Shown in pieces: positions 7,494 through 63,750 of a DNA stretch of 64,000 nucleotides. Origin of the DNA: Podarcis liolepis (Eukaryota). A model generated the notes under the pieces. That model searched no databases, was not told the origin of the DNA, and worked only from the letters and a program-made list of their open reading frames with translations. The stretch is from the NCBI GenBank assembly GCA_965112155.1, contig OZ218105.1. One strand, written 5' to 3'. Every line of letters starts with the position of its first letter. Position 1 is the first letter of the stretch. Both the position numbers and the translations under genes were made by a program.

Positions 7494-7863
7494 GTAAGGC
7501 TACATAACCCAAAGTAGCTTAATTAGATAGTGATGTGCAAAGCAAACTATGGCAAAGGTAAGAATATCTTCTTTGTGGCATTTGTGCCTGTTCTTTTGGG
7601 CCATTTAGGATTGATTTGGCCCCTGGAAAATGCAGCACCGAGAATGGCTCCATGGATGCAAACACGGTAAAAATTGCTTCTGACCTGGTGGCTTCTGTGC
7701 TTAAAAGTTGTCATATCCTGGGAGCGACCTGACATTTCTACAAGCTCAGCAGCACATTTCTTAGCCCCCAGAAATGGCAACTGCAATCCAGCCCAAAGTT
7801 TAGGCACACTACTCATTTTCTACTGAGCCTCAAATTATGGCTGCCACGAGGAAATTCAATGTA

Positions 7864-8089
7864 CAGTGGTACCTCGGGTTACATACGCTTCCGCTTACAG
7901 TCTCTGCTAACCCAGAAATAATACCTCGGGCTAAGAACTTTGCTTCAGGATGAGAACAGAAATCATGCTCCAGCGGCACGGCGGCAGCAGGAGGCCCCAT
8001 TAGCTAAAGTGGTGCTTCAGGTTAAGAACAGTTTCAGGTTAAGAACCAACCTCCGGAACGAATTAAGTACTTAACCCGAGGTACCACTG
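7864..8089. mobile_element. Tc1/mariner (pogo/Tigger-like) MITE
   Basis: TIR CAGTGGTACCTCGGGTTA / TAACCCGAGGTACCACTG; TA TSD. Confidence 0.92.
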
Positions 8090-8518
8090 TAGTAATATAT
8101 TAGCACAGTCTGCCAGGTGACTCCATGCCTCTGCCATGTATTTTTGTTAGCAGCTAAAAGGCGGCTGTTCCAAGTGACTTCTCTGTGGATAGTGCCATTA
8201 TATAGTTTCGTCATTAGGTGGCACTAGACTTATTTGCATCTTAGCGGAGCCAGGAGTTGCCAATTGTGGTTATGTTCCGGTTGGAGAGGGACAACAAAGT
8301 TCTTGCTTAGCCTCCTGACTTTTGTGTGGCGTTTGTAATGTGTAGACTGGTCCAATGGGGTAGCTCTCAGAAATCAACGATTTTCACACATAGCAGTGAT
8401 GAGCCTGTGGTTTTCCAAATGTTGTAGACCAGCTACCTCTGGAAGGCTACAGGTTTGCCATCCCTAACACATAGCAGCCAATTTGTTGCTGCTTTTTTTC
8501 TTTATTAAACCTCATTGT

Positions 8519-14389: not shown

Positions 14390-14843
14390 GGTCCACATAT
14401 TTAAAGCTATGGTTTTCCCAGTAGTGATGTATGGAAATGAGAGCTGGACCATAAAGAAGGCTGATCGCCAAAGAATTGATGCTTTTGAATTATGGTGCTA
14501 GAGGAGACTCTTGAGAGTCCCATGGACTGCAAGAAGGTCAAACCTATCCATTCTTAAGGAAATCAGCCCTGAGTGCTCACTGGAAGGACAGATCCTGAAG
14601 CTGGAACTCCAATATTTTGGCCACCTCATGAGAAGAGAAGACTCCCTGGAAAAGACCGTGATGTTGGGAAAGATGGAGGGCACAAGGAGAAGGGCACGAC
14701 AGAGGACGAGATGGTTGGACAGTGTTCTCGAAGCTACCAGCATGAGTTTGACCAAACTGCGGGAGGCAGTGGAAGACAGGAGTGCCTGGCGTGCTCTGGT
14801 CCATGGGGTCACGAAGAGTCGGACACAACTAAACAACAACAAC
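14390..14843 (+). mobile_element. RTE-BovB LINE, 5'-truncated 3' fragment
   Basis: Encodes KAMVFPVVMYG.ESWTIKKADRQRIDAFELWC*RRLLRVPWTARRSNLSILKEISPECSLEGQILKL...; (CAA)n tail. Confidence 0.95.
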
Positions 14844-14937
14844 ATGCTGGGTCCGATGTGTACTACTAATGCAGGCAATGGTCTCCTTAGTCCAGAAAGA
14901 CCAGCTGGAGAAAAATACACACACATTGTCCATCAGG

Positions 14938-15130
14938 TTTCAGTTACAGATAGGTAGCCGTGTTGGTCTGCCATAGTCAAAACAAAAAAATTCCTTCCAG
15001 TAGCACCTTAAAGACCAACTAAGTTAGTTCTTGGTATGTTTCAGTGTATCTGAAGAAGTGTGCTTGCACACGAAAGCTCATACCAAGAACTAACTTAGTT
15101 GGTCTTTAAGGTGCTACTGGAAGGAATTTT
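14938..15130. mobile_element. Penelope-like element remnant (pseudo-LTR with 5' inverted copy)
   Basis: ggtagccgtgttggtctg and CTGAAGAAG...GAAAGCT motifs typical of vertebrate Penelope pLTRs; perfect 52-bp inverted repeat (14987-15038 / 15079-15130); 13-bp TSD ATTGTCCATCAGG. Confidence 0.85.
15046..15083 (+). ncRNA. Minimal type I hammerhead ribozyme motif (Penelope-associated)
   Basis: Stem I GUAU/AUAC, core CUGAAGA, stem II GUGUG-CUUG-CACAC, GAAA, palindromic AGCU in place of stem III, predicted cleavage after C15079. Confidence 0.7.
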
Positions 15131-15519
15131 ATTGTCCATCAGGGACAGCTTTTTGATGAAGGGATGTAGCTCTCCCTTGTGCTGTGTGAATGCCAGCGAC
15201 AACATTCACGTTCATCTGTTCTTTCTTCCCCTAAAGGTAATTGCAGGACATGTATCCTTGGATGCAGGGATCACCATGGGAATTAGGGTATTTAACAAAT
15301 CATACACTAAACAGCTGACTCCTGTGGATGCTTGAATAAAACAGGCAGAGCACAGCTGCCACCCGTCATACGCCTCTTCGAACACTATCCTTCATTACAA
15401 GCACATTTGGACCTTCTCCTATCAAGCACCAAGCACAGAGCATCGCTTTTACCTGGAAAGAGATCGCTTGAGCTCCCATCCCCTCAGAATCACTCATTTG
15501 TGATTATCGGTGCTGTGCG

Positions 15520-19210: not shown

Positions 19211-19806
19211 CTCTGTGGACTTTTAAAAGGTCACTGTGGAAAGCAATTTAAACCAGCCCTATTTGACAGACATACACTCTCTGTTGGCCTTCAGATCCAC
19301 AGTTTACATGCACAGGATCCACTTTCATTATAACGTTTCATAGAAGGGTCTGTTGTGCCAAACTCCAGATATTCCTTTATGGAAACCTCACAATTTCTTC
19401 CTAGCCCTTGGGCATTTTCTCTTTGCCTCTCTGCCCCGAACCTATTCTCCTGCATCTTATTTTCCTTTTTTCCTGTCCTTGTTACTTGAACATCTTACCT
19501 CAAGTCCATTAATACCAATACATTTCCTGCTCAGCCAATGCTAATCCCAATGACTTCTCAAGCGAATATTAATTTCCTTTAGCTTGCTCTTCCTTATTTT
19601 TCCCCTTTCTGCTTGATCCAGCCATGCAAATACCAACTACTTATAAAACAAAAACTAAATTTACAAATTTTGCACCCAAACTTTGGCCCAGTCTTATCAC
19701 ATTTGAACACTATATGCTTTTGGCAAACCTGTAAGTTTTTTACAAGCACTTTTCATCATAAACATCAAACTGTGGAGGGTGGGGGGGAAATATATGTCCG
19801 ACTTAC

Positions 19807-19958
19807 TTTGGATGTGTATATTCATCTATGAGGTGAACTTTTTCCACCACATCTCCTCCAATGGTTCGAACTAAATCATAGAAGTCATTTTCGGAGTATT
19901 TTTCAGAGGGCAGCCAGAAAGAGATATCGTTGATCACAGGAGGATATTTGCTGAGAGG
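19807..19958 (-). CDS. FARS2: FARS2 internal coding exon (equivalent to human exon 6), start of the ferredoxin-fold anticodon-binding domain
   Basis: Manual translation gives [50 protein letters not shown](K). Acceptor ttgttgctttttag|CCT and donor AA|gtaagt. 152 bp, joins in frame to the 35876 donor. Not in the ORF track. Confidence 0.97.
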
Positions 19959-30246: not shown

Positions 30247-31519
30247 TTTTCCTTCCCTTACTATGCTTCATTTCTACCCTCTATGCATAGAGTCGACTGG
30301 CCATGGAGGATGACAGCTTGTGCAATGGAGAGCAGCTGAGGCTGCAGGGCAGCAAATGGCCCTGTTTGCGCTCGCACGATGCTTATTGCAATGCTTCAGT
30401 TCCCTGTTGCAAACGTAGGATTCATTTAGATTATGGCTGCATTTTTAAAGGAAGGCTTTTCATTCCTGATAGCATCTGGTCAATCATTATTAAGTCGTGT
30501 ATTTCTTACGAACAGTTGGGACGTCTGCTAATATTACATGATATGCTCTCTATTAAAGAACATCTAGGGGTTTTATTTTCCCAGAAAGAATAGTGAATGG
30601 AATTCTTACGAGCAAACCAGTATAAATGCAATTTCATCAAAATCAGGACTGAAATCTTTGTGTTATGCGATTTTCCTGGAGTCAACACCTAACTCTGAAC
30701 AGAACTGGACTCTGAGTCACGATCTGGATGTTTGCTGGACTGCTGCATTGTGATTTTGATTGTTTGCTAAGCCTTTCAATTTCAGCGCTGTCTTTTATTT
30801 TCAAATGCTTGCTAAACGGCATTTTAAATTGCTCCTGAATCTTTTAAAAATGCTTCTGAAGGGCATTTAAAAATAACTATTTTGTGCTAATAATGAATTA
30901 TTGTTTCAAAACAAACAATTAGAAACCCTGCTGTAATACCTGACAATAGTGTAATACTGACAAAGGAGTGATTTTGATATCTGACATGCCCAGGTCATGA
31001 TAAACCATGGTTTACTGAGACTTGAGAGAATGCTCTTGCTTCACTCCCCTGCCCCTGCCCCTAAGTATCAGCAACAAACTACAATATCAGGCTTAGCACT
31101 ATGTCCAAACCAAGGACTATAATTTGTTTCAGTCAAAGAAACCATATTTGGTAAGCCAAGAACAAACCTTGGCTTCAAATCATGTTTTGTTAGGAGTGTG
31201 AAACAAACCACAGCCTTCAGTTTGGATATACTGCTAAGCCAGGGACCATGGTTCATAGTTTCTATTCATGTGAGGAGTGAAGAGAAAGCTGTCTAAACAT
31301 TCACAGTAAACCACTAACTGTGATTTACCATGACATGCAAGTACAGCCAGTGTTAGCTACTCATGAAATGCCTCTTTCAAATGGTTCCTTGGCCATGTAC
31401 TCTGTAGTAATGACATGTCACAGTTTGTTATCCAGGAAGCTTGTTTGGAGTTGCATCTGTGAGAGCAGGACTCCACGGGAATCTAGGAGGAAGTGGATGT
31501 AGAGCAAGTGGCAGTAAAG

Positions 31520-31655
31520 CAGGTACAGGCAAAGTCAGCCCTCCAGATGTTTTGGGACTACAACTCCCATCATCCCTAGCTAACAGGACCGGTGGTCAGG
31601 GATGATGGGAGTTGTAGTCCCAAAACAGCTGGAGGGCTGACTTTGCCTATGCCTG
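31520..31655. mobile_element. Palindromic hAT MITE
   Basis: Near-perfect hairpin; TSD cagtaaag/cagttgag (6/8). Confidence 0.85.
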
Positions 31656-33738
31656 CAGTTGAGCATAGCCATTGTATCTAGTAGACATCTATAGCCTTTT
31701 CCTCCATGCATCTTTTAGGGGTGCAGAAGACCTTTGGAGGGATGGGTGGATGGATGGATGGCAGTGATGCTCGTGGGCAGGGATGTATTTGGATATATGA
31801 GAGGACTCATTTCTCAGTGAGCATGCCATCTGCACAGGGCCTTAGAACTGGGTCATTTGCTGTCCAAGACACTGGCTCTGCGGCTAGCATTTTGCACTGA
31901 TGTTTTGTGTGGAGAATGTGTGCACGCGTCCGCGTTCACACATGGAAATCTTAATTATGGGAAATTGCAAGACCTAAAAGCCCCTTTTTGTGCATTCAAG
32001 TTCTATCATTGATAATAAAGGAAGGGGGAAATAGCATTTGAAAAGAAAGGGGCTTGTAGCAGCAACCCCAAGGAGCTAGCAAATTCATATGTATCATTTT
32101 CTCATATTTACTTGATGGATTTAATTCCACTCTATTCAGTGGGCTCAGAGTTGCTTGTTCCCAAATCATTATCAAATGAAATGATTTGAGGAATAAAAGA
32201 GGCTGAATTAAATTTTTAAAAAATGATTCTTTATAGCCATAAAACCTATTGAAACAACAATCTTGAACAACCATATCTTACTGTACACAATCTGTTGCAA
32301 TAAGCATCAAACTGGGGGTAAAAGGGCAGAGTCAGCGACTTGTTTGTACTCTGTTACACATAAGGAGAACCAAAAGTGGTTTATCATTTAATGCTTTAAT
32401 ACCAGCCAATAAAATAAAAATTGCTTACAGCAGCTATATCAAGGAGTGTTCGACCACAAGGCCATTCTATACTGTCTACAAATTGACTTTTCAGTGATCT
32501 TGGAGTAGAAAACCAATCTTTTGAATGATTCGAGGAATGTCCATACCACAAACCATCATTCCATGCCAAAGCAGTTTTCAAAGTTTCCCCCAACCAGCTT
32601 TTCCACAAGACAACAGTCCCATGAAGAAAGAATGTGCATTTAACTTCATGGATTTGGTCCTGAGTGACAATCAGACAGTTTGCGAGGTGTATTTACAAAA
32701 CTAAGTTCACTCACAGAAACCCACGGTAGAGGAGGTCAATTGGATGCCACCGTATAAATATGACTGGTGCTGACTGCCTTTTACCCCCAGTTTAGAATGT
32801 GTGCTTAAATGTACTTTAGGTTGCCTGAAGTGTTCTCACGACTTTATAGAACCAAGTGGCACACGTGCGGAATACATTTTCACTGAGTTGAATCCTACGG
32901 ACAGAAACTGCAGCCAAATAACTCAGTTCTACAATAATATATCTTACTTCCAACGTATAAGGCTCGGGATTCTTTGGTACATGCCTAGATACTCTCACAA
33001 GTATCTGCAAACCCAGATATACGCACTTCACACATATCCTCAATTACAATCAAGCTAATGAGCCAATAAATCAAATCACAGGCTGAACCTCATTATTTTA
33101 GGCATCCAAGTTCAATTTGCTTACTAATGGCTGCATGGCTGCTTTTAATAGATGTGCTATTAAAAAGTAAACATAATGAATGAATAACTATTTAGGCATC
33201 ATTACCCTATAAAGATGAAAAATTTCAAAGAATGCGGAACCCATGGAAGCTACTTACTTTTTTTTTTATTGTGGAAAAATGCTAATCATAAACTCAGATC
33301 GCAAACGTAAATTACACAGAGGGAAAGAGCTAGTAAAAGCATCATCAGGTCTATCCCAACTTCATATTGATGTTGAATGAGCTGAAATGGCTAGTTTGTA
33401 CACACATAGTTGTTTGTCCTGAAACGAACAGTACAGATGAGGAAGCAATTCCTCACCCCCACCAATTTGGCGTATTTTGGGGGTTCCGAATATACCCAAA
33501 CAAGATTTTGATTTCTCAGTGGCCTCATGTATCATTGCATTGTACAACATGGACACAGCGACATCCCAATCTTTAAATTTGTCGTGGCAAATTCTCCTGC
33601 GTTGGGACATGACAACATCACAGTGAAAGCATGCAGCCCACAGCCCACCCAAAGCAAGGAACTTCACGAATGATTCCTTAATCCTGCGTATGTATTAGAG
33701 AGAGAAATGCTTTTGAGTGGAATTGCAACATTTTCTAG

Positions 33739-35848: not shown

Positions 35849-36223
<375 letters not shown>

Positions 36224-41172: not shown

Positions 41173-41302
41173 CAGTTTCCCAAACTTGGGCCTCCAGCTG
41201 TTTTTGGACTACAACTCCCATCATCCCTGACCACTGGTCTTGCTAGCTAGGGATGATGGGAGTCTCCAGAAACAGCTGGAGACCCAAGTTTGGGAAACAC
41301 TA
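41173..41302. mobile_element. Palindromic hAT MITE
   Basis: cagtttcccaaacttggg...cccaagtttgggaaacacta; TSD agctagac/agctagaa. Confidence 0.85.
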
Positions 41303-44480: not shown

Positions 44481-45400
44481 TGACTGGAAAACTTGACTTT
44501 TCGCTACCACCAGTTGTAGTTGAAGCCAGCCGCCATTTTAAAATGGCCAGCACGCGGGAAATGTTGCTTTGCCAGAGAATAAGACAAGGAAGGCTATATA
44601 CAAAAATTTCAGGATTGTTGATGTGTGAAAAGTTTTGCATGTAGAGGAGTAAAGCAGTCGGGCCTCAAAATAACTTTAGAAAATCATAAAAGGTTTTCTA
44701 AGGTAGTTTCAGCAAAACTCATAGAAGATATAATTTCTGAAACTACACACTTACCCACTGCAAAACATTAAGCCAGAGTTTTGAAAAGCTATTAAGAGGG
44801 ATTGAAAGAACTTCCAATGGCACCTGTGACATTCACTTTCAGTGTTAATATCCTATTTTACCATGATGGCAGAGTAATAAGCTTTTAATTGAAAAAATGC
44901 AATTATACTACAATGAAGCACTGCGTTACGAATCAAAAAGCACATTGTTCTTTATGCTCATTGTTCTTAGGGTCACACTTGGAAGTTCGCGATCCATTAC
45001 CAAGTGCAAAAGTTTCTACTCGGATGCGTTTCATATTGGAATATTAGAGAGTCTAGCACCTCAAATGTCAAACCGTTATTCACAACATTTGTATATATTC
45101 CTTCTTCTAGGTAGCTCACTACAGTCTTGTGAAGTGCTTGAGGCTGAGAGAGAATGATTTCAGGATGGGCCATAGCTTTCCAGGTTCAATCCCCGCTATG
45201 AATCTCCCAATTTGAAACACTGGGGAGCCACTCCCAATCTGTGTAGACAACAATGAGGTTGATGGACCAATGGGGTGACTTGGAATAAGGCAACCTGTGT
45301 TCTATGTTCAATGCATGTTTTATCTGAGACAATTCCACAGAGACTGTGGGTTTTAATTGGGGAGAGGAGTTGCACTTCCAACACTTTAGTTCCTCTAAAA

Positions 45401-45536
45401 CAGGCATCCCCAAAATCAGCCTGCCAGGTGTTTTGGGACTACAATTCCCATCATCTCTGACCACTGGTCCTGTTAGCTAGGGATGATGGGAGTTGTAGTC
45501 CCAAAACATCTGGAGGGCCGAGTCTGGGAATGCCTG
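45401..45536. mobile_element. Palindromic hAT MITE
   Basis: CAGGCATCCCCA...TGGGAATGCCTG; perfect 8-bp TSD CTCTAAAA. Confidence 0.92.
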
Positions 45537-46343
45537 CTCTAAAACGTCTCTGTGCTCACTTGTACAAAGTTTGTTCCAAGAAGCTAGTCCTAGATATCCT
45601 TTACACATGCGTCCCTTTTTTTTGAAAACAACTTTCCCCCCTCCTGCTTAGGGTTTTCCCATACAGTCAGGTCGAACTGCCTTCTTTCAGTTAGCACACT
45701 GCGTCATTTCCAAAGTCATTAGCTTCTTGGCCCTATTGAAGAGACAAAATTGCACTAGAGTTTTCAAGTCATACCAACCATCTCCCCAGACAAGAGAACA
45801 ACTACGCATGACACTTCTTTATCAAAGGAAGTGGTTTGCAAACTTCCTGCTTCCAACTAACCCCTTCCATACTGATTTGTCTGCTGAGGAATCCCTGTGA
45901 ATTTGCCCCAGAACCTTCCTTCCCAGAAGAGAATTCTGGGACCTACCGAGCCTCACCAGAAATTGCATAATGTTGCTCAATCCGTTTAAGATGGCAAGAA
46001 GGGAGCCAGGCTGTAGTGAGCAAGATAAGCCAGAGGTCTCCTCCAAGGTAATGTGGAGAGGAGGATTAACCTCACCCCCTCACCAGCTCGAAAGTTCACT
46101 GAGCCCTGTGGCTTGTTATGGCTCTTGCTGGGCACAGTCACAAAGCTATAGCCATCCTCCGTCTCCATCTCATAGCTGGAAGAGACACAGAGGCACCTAT
46201 CCACCAGGCAGAGACAGAGAAAGCCCTTCCCATTCTGAGCTTGCAGTGCTTGTAGGGAAAGGCAGAGCCAAGTCAACTTCCTGTGCCCCTTTGGCTGGTG
46301 TTCTGCAAGCTTGGGACACTGGTCAGATGGACACAAAAAGAGA

Positions 46344-50898: not shown

Positions 50899-51033
50899 CA
50901 GGTTTCCTCAACCTCAGCCCTCCAGATGTTTTGGCCTACATCTCCCATGATCCCTAGCTAGCAGGACCAGTGGCCAGGGATGATGGGAACTGTAGTCTCA
51001 AAACATCTGGAGGGCCGAGGTTAAGGAAGCCTG
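50899..51033. mobile_element. Palindromic hAT MITE
   Basis: CAGGTTTCCTCAACCTC...GAGGTTAAGGAAGCCTG; TSD ggctctag/ggctatag. Confidence 0.88.
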
Positions 51034-53923: not shown

Positions 53924-54392
53924 TAGGGCTGGACGATATATCAATATATTGTCCAAAACCCGGTTTGAAGTCCATACTGTGCTATTGGTTTCATAATTTT
54001 TGACCTGGCAATGTATCAAGAAACATGATGTGTCTGTGTGCTATGCTAAAATCACAATGTGGGGAAAACTGTGAAGCCAGCAAATGCCTCTACATAGCTC
54101 CATCCTTATTTCAGACATTGTGATACAGTGGTACCTTGGATGTCGAACTTAATCCGTTCCGGGGATCCGTTCGACTCCCAGAATGGTTCAAAAACCAAGG
54201 CATGGCTTCCGATTGGCTCAATTGGTAGCCGCGTCAGACGTTCAGCTTCCAAAAAAAGTTCGCAAATCGAAACACTTCTGGGTTTGCGGCATTCGGGAGC
54301 CAATTAGTTCGGGAGCCAAGCTGTTTGAGAACCAAGGTACCACTGTATATTGGTATATTGCAATGTTGAAAATCAGATATTGTACAGCCGTA
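53924..54392. mobile_element. hAT MITE containing a nested Tigger-like MITE
   Basis: TIR TAGGGCTGGACGATAT / ATATTGTACAGCCGTA; perfect 8-bp TSD GCATGGAT. Confidence 0.9.
54126..54345. mobile_element. Tigger-like MITE, third subfamily
   Basis: CAGTGGTACCTTGG...CCAAGGTACCACTG; TA TSD. Confidence 0.9.
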
Positions 54393-56619: not shown

Positions 56620-56737
56620 CGGTGTTTTTCAAACTTGGGTCTTTGGCTGCTTTTAGACTACAATTCCCATCATCCCTTGCTAGCTAGGGATGATGGGAAT
56701 TATAGTCTAAAACAGCTGGAGAGCCACGTTTGGGAAA
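56620..56737. mobile_element. Palindromic hAT MITE (degraded)
   Basis: caaacttggg...actacaattcccatcatcc...ggatgatgggaattatagtc...tttgggaaa. Confidence 0.75.
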
Positions 56738-60096: not shown

Positions 60097-60493
60097 TACT
60101 TAACATTTTCATATGTGTACACCTAAAAACCACATACATTTTTATGTGTGTGAAAACACCCTATGATTTTAGTTATTATGGGCTTACAAGCAAGCAAGGT
60201 CAAATAGTGTTCGGAAGTATTAAAGCCTCCCATGGGTGGTATTGAATGATTGAAGTTAACCTTTGGGGATGCAGTTTCAACACAGGTTTTATTTGGCCTG
60301 ATTCTGCGCAGCCCCTTGGCCTGATTTGGCGGCAGCCCCTTGAAAACAGAAGTGCCTGAGGACTGTTCGACACAGGAATGGCATTATGCGTATGAAGCAG
60401 CTTCCAGGCGATTTCAAAATCTCTTTTACGGGGAGCTGCAATCATGTGGTTGAAAATTGTTTGAACTGTGTAGTAAGCAGCCAGAAACAAATA

Positions 60494-60717
60494 CAGTGGT
60501 ACCTCGGGTTACATACGCTTCAGGTTACAGACTCCGCTAACCCAGAAATAGTGCTTCAGGTTAAGAACTTTGCTTCAGGTTGAAAACAGAAATCGTGCTC
60601 CAGTGGCGCGGCGGCAGCGGGAGGCCCCATTAGCTAAAGTGGTGCTTCAGGTTAAGAAGTTTCAGGTTAAGAACGGACCTCTGGAACGAATTAAGTACTT
60701 AACCTGAGGTACCACTG
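60494..60717. mobile_element. Tigger-like MITE (same subfamily as 7864)
   Basis: CAGTGGTACCTCGGGTTA...AACCTGAGGTACCACTG; TA TSD. Confidence 0.92.
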
Positions 60718-61145
60718 TATGAAGCTGCATTGTACATCACGTGTCTGAGGCATTTCATTTTTTTGAAGCAGCTATGGGTTGAAATAGAGATGATGCAAGA
60801 GATTTGTGAATGGTTTGTTTTTGTTTTTCCGGTTTCGACTCCTCTTTCCATTTATGCTGTCATGGAAAACCCTGATTTAGAGCAGAATGGTGGCAAGTGG
60901 AGGGGGTTTAACTCTTTCCTCCTGCACCATTCCCCAATTTTAATTGCCACCCTAAAGCTGCGATCTGGGCAGGCACATTTGTTGGGCATTTCCATTGCAC
61001 AGAAAGTAGACTTTCTGTCAAGAGGGGGGAGAGGGACGTAGGTTTAAGGAAATAGCACCAGGGGAAAGGCTTAAACACACACCCTGCTCCCTCCGAGCCC
61101 ACCCTGCTCAGAGTAGTATCTCTGCTCTGATCAAAATCACAGTTC

Positions 61146-63319: not shown

Positions 63320-63750
63320 TAATAACAACAACAATAATTTTATTATTTATACCTCTCTCATCTGACTGGGTTGCCCTAGCCGCTCTGGGCGGGTTCCAAC
63401 ATACCGTATTTTTTGCTCTATAAGATGCACCAGACCACAAGACACACCTAGTTTTTGGAGGAGGAAAACAAGAGGGGGAAAAAATCTGAATCTCAGAAGC
63501 CAGAACAGCGAGAGGGATTGCTGTGCAGTGAAAGCAGCAATCCCTCTTGCTGTTCTGGCTTCTGGGATAGCTGCGCAGCCTGCATTCGCTCCATAAGGCG
63601 CACACACATTTCCCCTTACTTTTTAGGAGGGAAAAAGTGAGTCTTATAGAGCAAAAAATACGGTATATAAAAACATCATTAAACATTAAACATAAAAAAC
63701 TTTCCTATACAGGGCTGCCTGTCGATGTCTTCTAAAGGTTGTATAGTTTC
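63320..63750 (-). mobile_element. L2 3' end fragment (split by a MITE)
   Basis: ttattatttatacc...catctgactgggttgccctagccgctctgggcggg...cagggctgcct...gatgtcttctaaa. Confidence 0.8.
63404..63663. mobile_element. Tc2/pogo-like MITE
   Basis: TIR CCGTATTTTTTGCTCTATAAGA / TCTTATAGAGCAAAAAATACGG; TA TSD. Confidence 0.92.

Follow-up and report, generated by a model that had tools for sequence, protein, structure and literature searches.

What a hammerhead ribozyme motif does in an intron of FARS2 is the question raised by this locus: it could serve the host gene, it could still cleave RNA, or it could be the remnant of a mobile element. From the window, that is, the whole 64-kb stretch of DNA analysed, and from related copies elsewhere in the genome, we conclude with high confidence that the motif is the end-repeat hammerhead of a young Penelope-like element (PLE), carried in a 193-bp head-to-head stub that likely arose by two-ended copying of the element RNA and is predicted to be inert at this place.

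The motif occupies 15046..15083 on the plus strand and has the form of a minimal type I hammerhead, with a predicted cut after C15079. Its 4-bp stem I is formed by 15046-49 (5' strand) and 15080-83 (3' strand). Core positions C3-A9 correspond to 15050-56 and precede an extra A at 15057; the 5-bp stem II (15058-62/15067-71) is closed by a CUUG loop and followed, within these 38 nt, by GAAA, with G12-A14 at 15072-74; an AGCU palindrome at 15075-78 leads to C17 at 15079. Re-read letter by letter, the core nucleotides, both stems, the CUUG loop and the AGCU of the original prediction all stand as claimed. The conserved core CUGANGA ... GAAA ... UH is present and a palindromic 15-16 region, AGCU, replaces stem III. 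Stem I falls within 3-5 bp, stem II within the range of at least 4 bp with G10.1-C11.1, and an extra nucleotide follows A9, in agreement with the features listed for PLE minimal type I hammerheads in PMC4209133. On every sequence feature checked, the motif is a member of this class, and the identity first proposed for it is further borne out by the RT and GIY-YIG open reading frame that its family carries.

By itself, the loose core does not exceed chance in the window (8 matches for 5.8 expected, and at least 8 in 23 of 100 shuffles). The full minimal-hammerhead descriptor finds 15046-15083 as its sole window match and is matched in 1 of 300 dinucleotide shuffles. A hammerhead model search had been proposed along with the motif, and its outcome was divided: positive with this descriptor, negative with the Rfam hammerhead covariance models, which have no match in the window, as expected for a minimal form devoid of a stable stem III. 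The canonical Rfam hammerhead class was rejected on the same grounds, and an Rfam match to mir-559 simply reflects a long hairpin. The CUUG loop is a minority variant (3 of 113 sampled arms), the other 110 carrying CAUG. With the majority loop, stem II becomes a perfect 14-nt palindrome, whereas the window copy has the minority CUUG at 15058-15071; the CAUG palindrome is predicted at -25 kcal/mol as a duplex versus -4 as a hairpin, and may be a site of RNA-RNA pairing.

The exons of FARS2 place the motif in the last coding intron of the gene and antisense to it, and both the intron and the orientation given by the original prediction are confirmed by this mapping. The exon preceding the host intron (FDX-ACB 1-48; 19806..19952) and the exon encoding the end of tRNA-synt_2d (PF01409, E 2e-18 to mitochondrial PheRS; 35912..36031) are on the minus strand, the motif is on the plus strand, and the exon that follows (FDX-ACB 52-94) is found 39 kb beyond the left edge of the window. 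CPEB3 and the intronic hammerheads of amniotes are models for host-exapted intronic ribozymes, and a comparable regulation of FARS2 has the intronic position in its favour and nothing more. The motif is antisense, the window copy is about 97-98% identical to thousands of others, and the orthologous site is empty in a relative, which refutes exaptation unless the insertion has been fixed and selected in this lineage; we give such a host role practically no chance. Since its 34-nt core is present in 12,253 exact copies genome-wide (control, 0), the motif is not a FARS2 feature, and with such a count the idea that the window copy is special is not supported.

The family to which these copies belong can be recognised from its long members, in which the sequence continues upstream into an ORF. 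In all four long loci examined (L171-L174), two hammerheads 3,008 nt apart enclose a 926-codon stop-to-stop frame, whose ORF of 910 aa starts from an ATG at +63 (0 being C17) and contains the domains PF00078 (RVT_1; E 1e-11) and, C-terminally, PF01541 (GIY-YIG; E 2e-5). The linker that joins RT to EN reads CNKPRCQLC (CX4CXXC), and a CX2-5CXXC zinc-finger linker marks Neptune and Nematis PLEs (PMC8557442). As placed by this linker motif, the family is a young EN+ PLE of Neptune/Nematis type. A 34-mer downstream of the hammerhead has 12,406 genome copies, long copies are mostly 97-100% identical, and a TATA box is located at -66 of the element. The layout is that of EN+ PLEs, with a partial tandem or pLTR, an inverted 5' copy, a tail of 30-40 nt and a target-site duplication (TSD). 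A comparison of conservation between core and flanks was discarded, the copies having been selected on an exact core.

The original prediction was right about the motif and overlooked what surrounds it, an inverted insertion of 193 bp (14938-15130) between two 13-bp copies of a target-site duplication (14925..14937 and 15131..15143; 100% direct repeat). In another organism (run X17, contig 9), the orthologous site is empty, 14924 being joined to 15131 with a single duplication copy, which indicates a recent insertion. The left arm (14938..15038, minus strand) covers the element from about +100 to 0. It starts at the distal RT start with a tail of about 35 nt holding the first codons of the ORF (ATG at 14974-14972), and it stops within 1 nt of the hammerhead cleavage site. 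The right arm (15038..15130, plus strand) covers -41 to +51, contains the hammerhead and ends in a T-run, the proximal RT start. The two arms overlap by a single nucleotide, G15038. They create a 57-bp inverted repeat (14982-15038 and 15079-15135; 98% identity, 40-nt spacer) that folds on either strand (z = -18) and is predicted to pair C17 and the 3' strand of stem I, the hammerhead occupying the spacer and the right arm of the repeat. A smaller hairpin, 15039-44 with 15050-55 (15039..15055, plus strand), is predicted to mask the CUGA core in RNAs that reach further 5' than the likely start site. An identical 8-mer opens both arms (14937-14944 and 15038-15045), and in the subfamily of the window copy the end of the tail (+93 to +100) complements -41 to -34, just 5' of the hammerhead.

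Other repeats are found in the window. The 3' part of a LINE, which we take to be of the RTE/Bov-B type, covers 14400-14845; its end, made of short CAA repeats, is about 80 nt away from the insertion on the left. MITE-like elements with hairpins or terminal inverted repeats lie at 31519-31656, 41175-41298, 45396-45541, 50899-51033 and 56651-56712; further ones at 7862-8091, 54123-54348 and 60491-60720, and another at 63401-63666. They include a family of about 230 bp with TA-flanked ends.

The origin of head-to-head stubs was approached by mapping arms in loci from 0-5.35 Mb of contig C1 (95/100 core-34-mer places, plus downstream-34-mer places). A filter of at least 93% identity and a 3' end at or beyond +40 retained 159 arms, and 50 head-to-head pairs from this one region, likewise filtered, had both arms reaching +40. 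Junctions were studied through individual loci and short patterns. The 3' ends of arms cluster in two zones, a proximal one at about +52 to +66 and a distal one at +90 to +100, and 49 of the 50 pairs combine one proximal with one distal arm (P=5e-14 versus a 50:50 draw), one mixed pair (L089) splitting differently in a second mapping. A TSD of 9-16 nt is present in 47 of the 50 pairs, versus 3 of 200 random controls. The window copy fits this pattern, with its left arm from +100 to 0, its right arm from -41 to +51 and its 1-nt overlap. Junctions display at least 2 nt of microhomology in 14 pairs, are blunt or share 1 nt in 10, and contain a filler of 1-5 nt in 12 and a longer one in 14; the filler is often copied from the arms.

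Together with the arm-end counts reported below, the proximal and distal pairing makes insertion by two-ended priming on uncleaved RNA likely. The endonuclease would cut both strands about 12-13 nt apart, and the cut 3' ends would each prime one cDNA, at the proximal site (+52 to +66) in one case and at the distal site (+90 to +100) in the other. Both cDNAs would mostly be copied from the same RNA or source locus, and their ends would be united by end-joining that uses microhomology or leaves templated filler. In L1 twin priming, likewise, the two 3' ends of the target each prime a cDNA, and the two cDNAs become joined head to head; unlike there, in the family studied here the arms overlap in sequence and the element itself sets both priming sites. 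Open-access text, titles and abstracts yielded no paper that describes twin priming for PLEs. For an anole PLE, PMC11167929 describes the cutting and extension of both strands and two RT start sites that bound the tail.

The same inverted layout could be produced by fold-back, or self-priming, of one cDNA or antisense RNA, one end of which would have been trimmed later. The Discussion of PMC3846280 proposes this for rotifer PLEs, attributing the layout to self-priming on an antisense template while leaving the question open. Fold-back would account for the proximal arm being nested in the distal one in 19 of the 50 pairs, for the palindromic junctions that exist (L101, L109; GGTATACC and GAGCTC junctions) and for the alleles that arms usually share (the T-run site in 19 of 19 pairs, private variants common to L132 and L133). 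Against it, neither arm contains the other in 30 of the 50 pairs, nor in the window copy; tail-only distal arms abut the proximal start (L067, L069), the arrangement that twin priming on a single RNA would give; and subfamily-diagnostic sites differ between the arms of some pairs (L047, L062; the T-run in 3 of 24 among L001-L030; four sites in L130/L131). In the long arms of L130/L131, a private variant at -925 is shared and the four differing sites lie between -209 and -161, which can be read as a mosaic made by template switch or conversion. The stub counts favour priming from both cut ends, and we consider fold-back unlikely.

A hairpin of about 195 bp might also be a non-autonomous element, MITE- or retrozyme-like, copied as a unit. 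At least 40 near-identical hairpins of this size (40 scored of 1,742 candidates) and one exact junction common to three unlinked loci speak for it. In these loci (L143, L149, L159), a distal arm ending at +17 meets a proximal arm starting exactly at the cleavage site and the flanks differ; the junction may mark a hot spot, or the whole stub may have been copied again as one piece. Junctions and arm lengths nevertheless vary between copies, forming a continuum that reaches arms of kilobase length, and the TSD and ends match those of the autonomous PLE. The copies are not tandem, unlike retrozymes. We regard a self-standing unit as very improbable. Non-LTR retrozymes, defined by tandem repeats with a hammerhead per unit in 10.64898/2026.07.22.740005, were rejected as a class for a copy with a single hammerhead and inverted arms.

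The 5' ends of arms bear on whether the copied RNA had been cleaved. Among 100 arms picked solely by a motif downstream of the ribozyme, the 5' end lies at -38..-30 in 43 and at -2..+3 in 3. Genome-wide, 1,681 arms end at -35/-34 and 69, the left arm of the window copy among them, at 0/+1, versus 57 and 17 at the control positions -4/-3 and +4/+5; the patterns used require three non-matching bases before the exact stretch and detect roughly 35-45% of events. An excess at the cleavage site was not found relative to the -4/-3 control (69 versus 57), and the count is above the +4/+5 control (17), so that a small excess is possible. When palindromic junctions are removed (18 at the cleavage site, 21 at -4/-3), the counts become 51 versus 36. 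Because the pile-up lies 30-31 nt below the TATA box, transcription likely starts at about -35. A 3' splice site at -35, where a pyrimidine-AG is present, was discarded as the cause since the -35 arms have no shared upstream exon.

Many cDNAs would extend as far as the 5' end of the RNA, near -35, and their template would be uncleaved. RT would start internally, only 90-135 nt from this end. Cleaved RNA appears to account for no more than a few percent of arms, which agrees with PMC11167929, where RNA that has not been processed serves as substrate in vitro. The left arm of the window copy, ending exactly at the cleavage site, is compatible with a cleaved or an uncleaved template. When RNA of a relative (runs X21, X23 and X24; 6-12% of each) was placed on the full-length junction, only the stub region had depth, on both strands, and the ORF was scarcely covered. 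No read starts are listed at the cleavage site or at -35, ends that these libraries cannot display.

Whether the window copy itself can cleave was addressed by folding predictions with ViennaRNA, which ignore help from proteins. For the insertion's plus-strand RNA, pairing of C3-A6 and of C17 is predicted (P unpaired 0.01-0.02). Opening the hammerhead would cost +13.4 kcal/mol in the window copy, +5.2 in a read-through RNA, in which the small hairpin masks CUGA, and +1.4 in an RNA starting at -36, where stem I forms with P about 0.6. The window stub has no TATA box, and no second hammerhead copy occurs in the 64-kb window. Cleavage of this copy is unlikely given a core predicted to be base-paired and the lack of a TATA box or partner in the window, and the proposal that it could still cut after C15079 when paired with a second copy is not supported. 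On plus-strand RNA, a trans-dimer, perhaps assisted by PLE protein, could be envisaged: every core position is present, more than 12,000 potential partners exist, an AGCU duplex can form (-3.9 kcal/mol, predicted), and the anole PLE hammerhead is protein-assisted, having cleaved only with PLE protein (PMC11167929). Yet the core and C17 are predicted to be locked in the 57-bp hairpin, the stub lacks the TATA box, the motif is antisense to FARS2, and minimal PLE hammerheads cleave weakly even as dimers (PMC4209133, PMC6765202). The ribozyme would be unable to fold, with neither promoter nor partner, on a strand that FARS2 does not transcribe; the copy is best regarded as inert, and cleavage in vivo as highly improbable. 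Weak in-vitro cleavage by a dimer of the bare 38-mer is conceivable, in keeping with published results on other PLE hammerheads (PMC4209133), and would describe the family rather than the locus. RNA from run X23 gives zero depth on the unique flanks of the window copy (another species, partial read).

At the level of the family, the hammerhead could act as a start-site-gated switch that also pairs RNAs for two-ended priming at the two fixed sites, a reading that we consider rather unlikely. The hammerhead would then fold only at the extreme 5' end of the RNA made from the TATA promoter, while in the read-through 3' copy the hairpin would hide it and the copied RNA would stay uncut. The palindromic stem II would help to pair two RNAs on a dimeric RT, and the window stub would be a fossil of one cDNA from uncleaved RNA and one from cleaved RNA.

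In run X23, from a related organism and with reads from other copies, strand-exclusive A-to-G differences appear on the element-sense strand at 15008-15035 and 15097-15108, for example 94/198 versus 0/170 at 15009 and 92/164 versus 0/69 at 15020 (UAG context). Such differences amount to at most 0.4% in three DNA contig sets. The pattern looks like A-to-I editing of hairpins in host RNA, of which a few loci may dominate. Each stub places a ready-made double-stranded hairpin in host introns, with these signs of editing in the RNA of a relative.

A single copy matters little, and the interest lies in the family as a natural experiment on two questions: the origin of head-to-head inverted copies, left open in PMC3846280 and PMC11167929, and the role of the hammerhead, called unclear in PMC8557442. 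The thousands of young insertions suggest that each cut strand uses a single RT start site and that the templates are uncleaved and end at the transcription start site.

Compared with the hammerheads described in PMC4209133, the motif differs from that of the painted-turtle PLE (supplement) through compensatory pair changes in stems I and II, the family has a 4-nt loop II (CAUG, or CUUG in a minority), and the window copy, unlike those in pseudo-LTRs, sits in a stub where it would be sequestered by its own inverted arm. The inverted head-to-head layout with a one-sided tail and a TSD is already published for EN+ PLE insertions, in PMC3846280 (Pen2a_Av), PMC8557442 (Fig. 2) and PMC2377424 (Fig. 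1C). These insertions have, as here, a TSD of about 9-13 bp and a tail of 30-40 nt, whereas the window copy consists of two stubs of about 100 nt without the ORF body. Poseidon of Anolis carolinensis (PAc; PMC11167929) has, like our family, a tail bounded by two internal RT start sites, and the cutting and extension of both strands on an uncleaved RNA template match the picture suggested here. Unlike PAc, our family has a zinc-finger linker of Neptune/Nematis type, and its hammerhead is upstream of the ATG (+63), which it overlaps in PAc. What the present analysis adds to these systems is the count of start-site versus cleavage-site ends and a predicted start-site-dependent fold: thousands of young copies permit counts, of start sites per arm and of 5' ends, that are absent from the passages of PMC3846280, PMC8557442 and PMC2377424 cited above.
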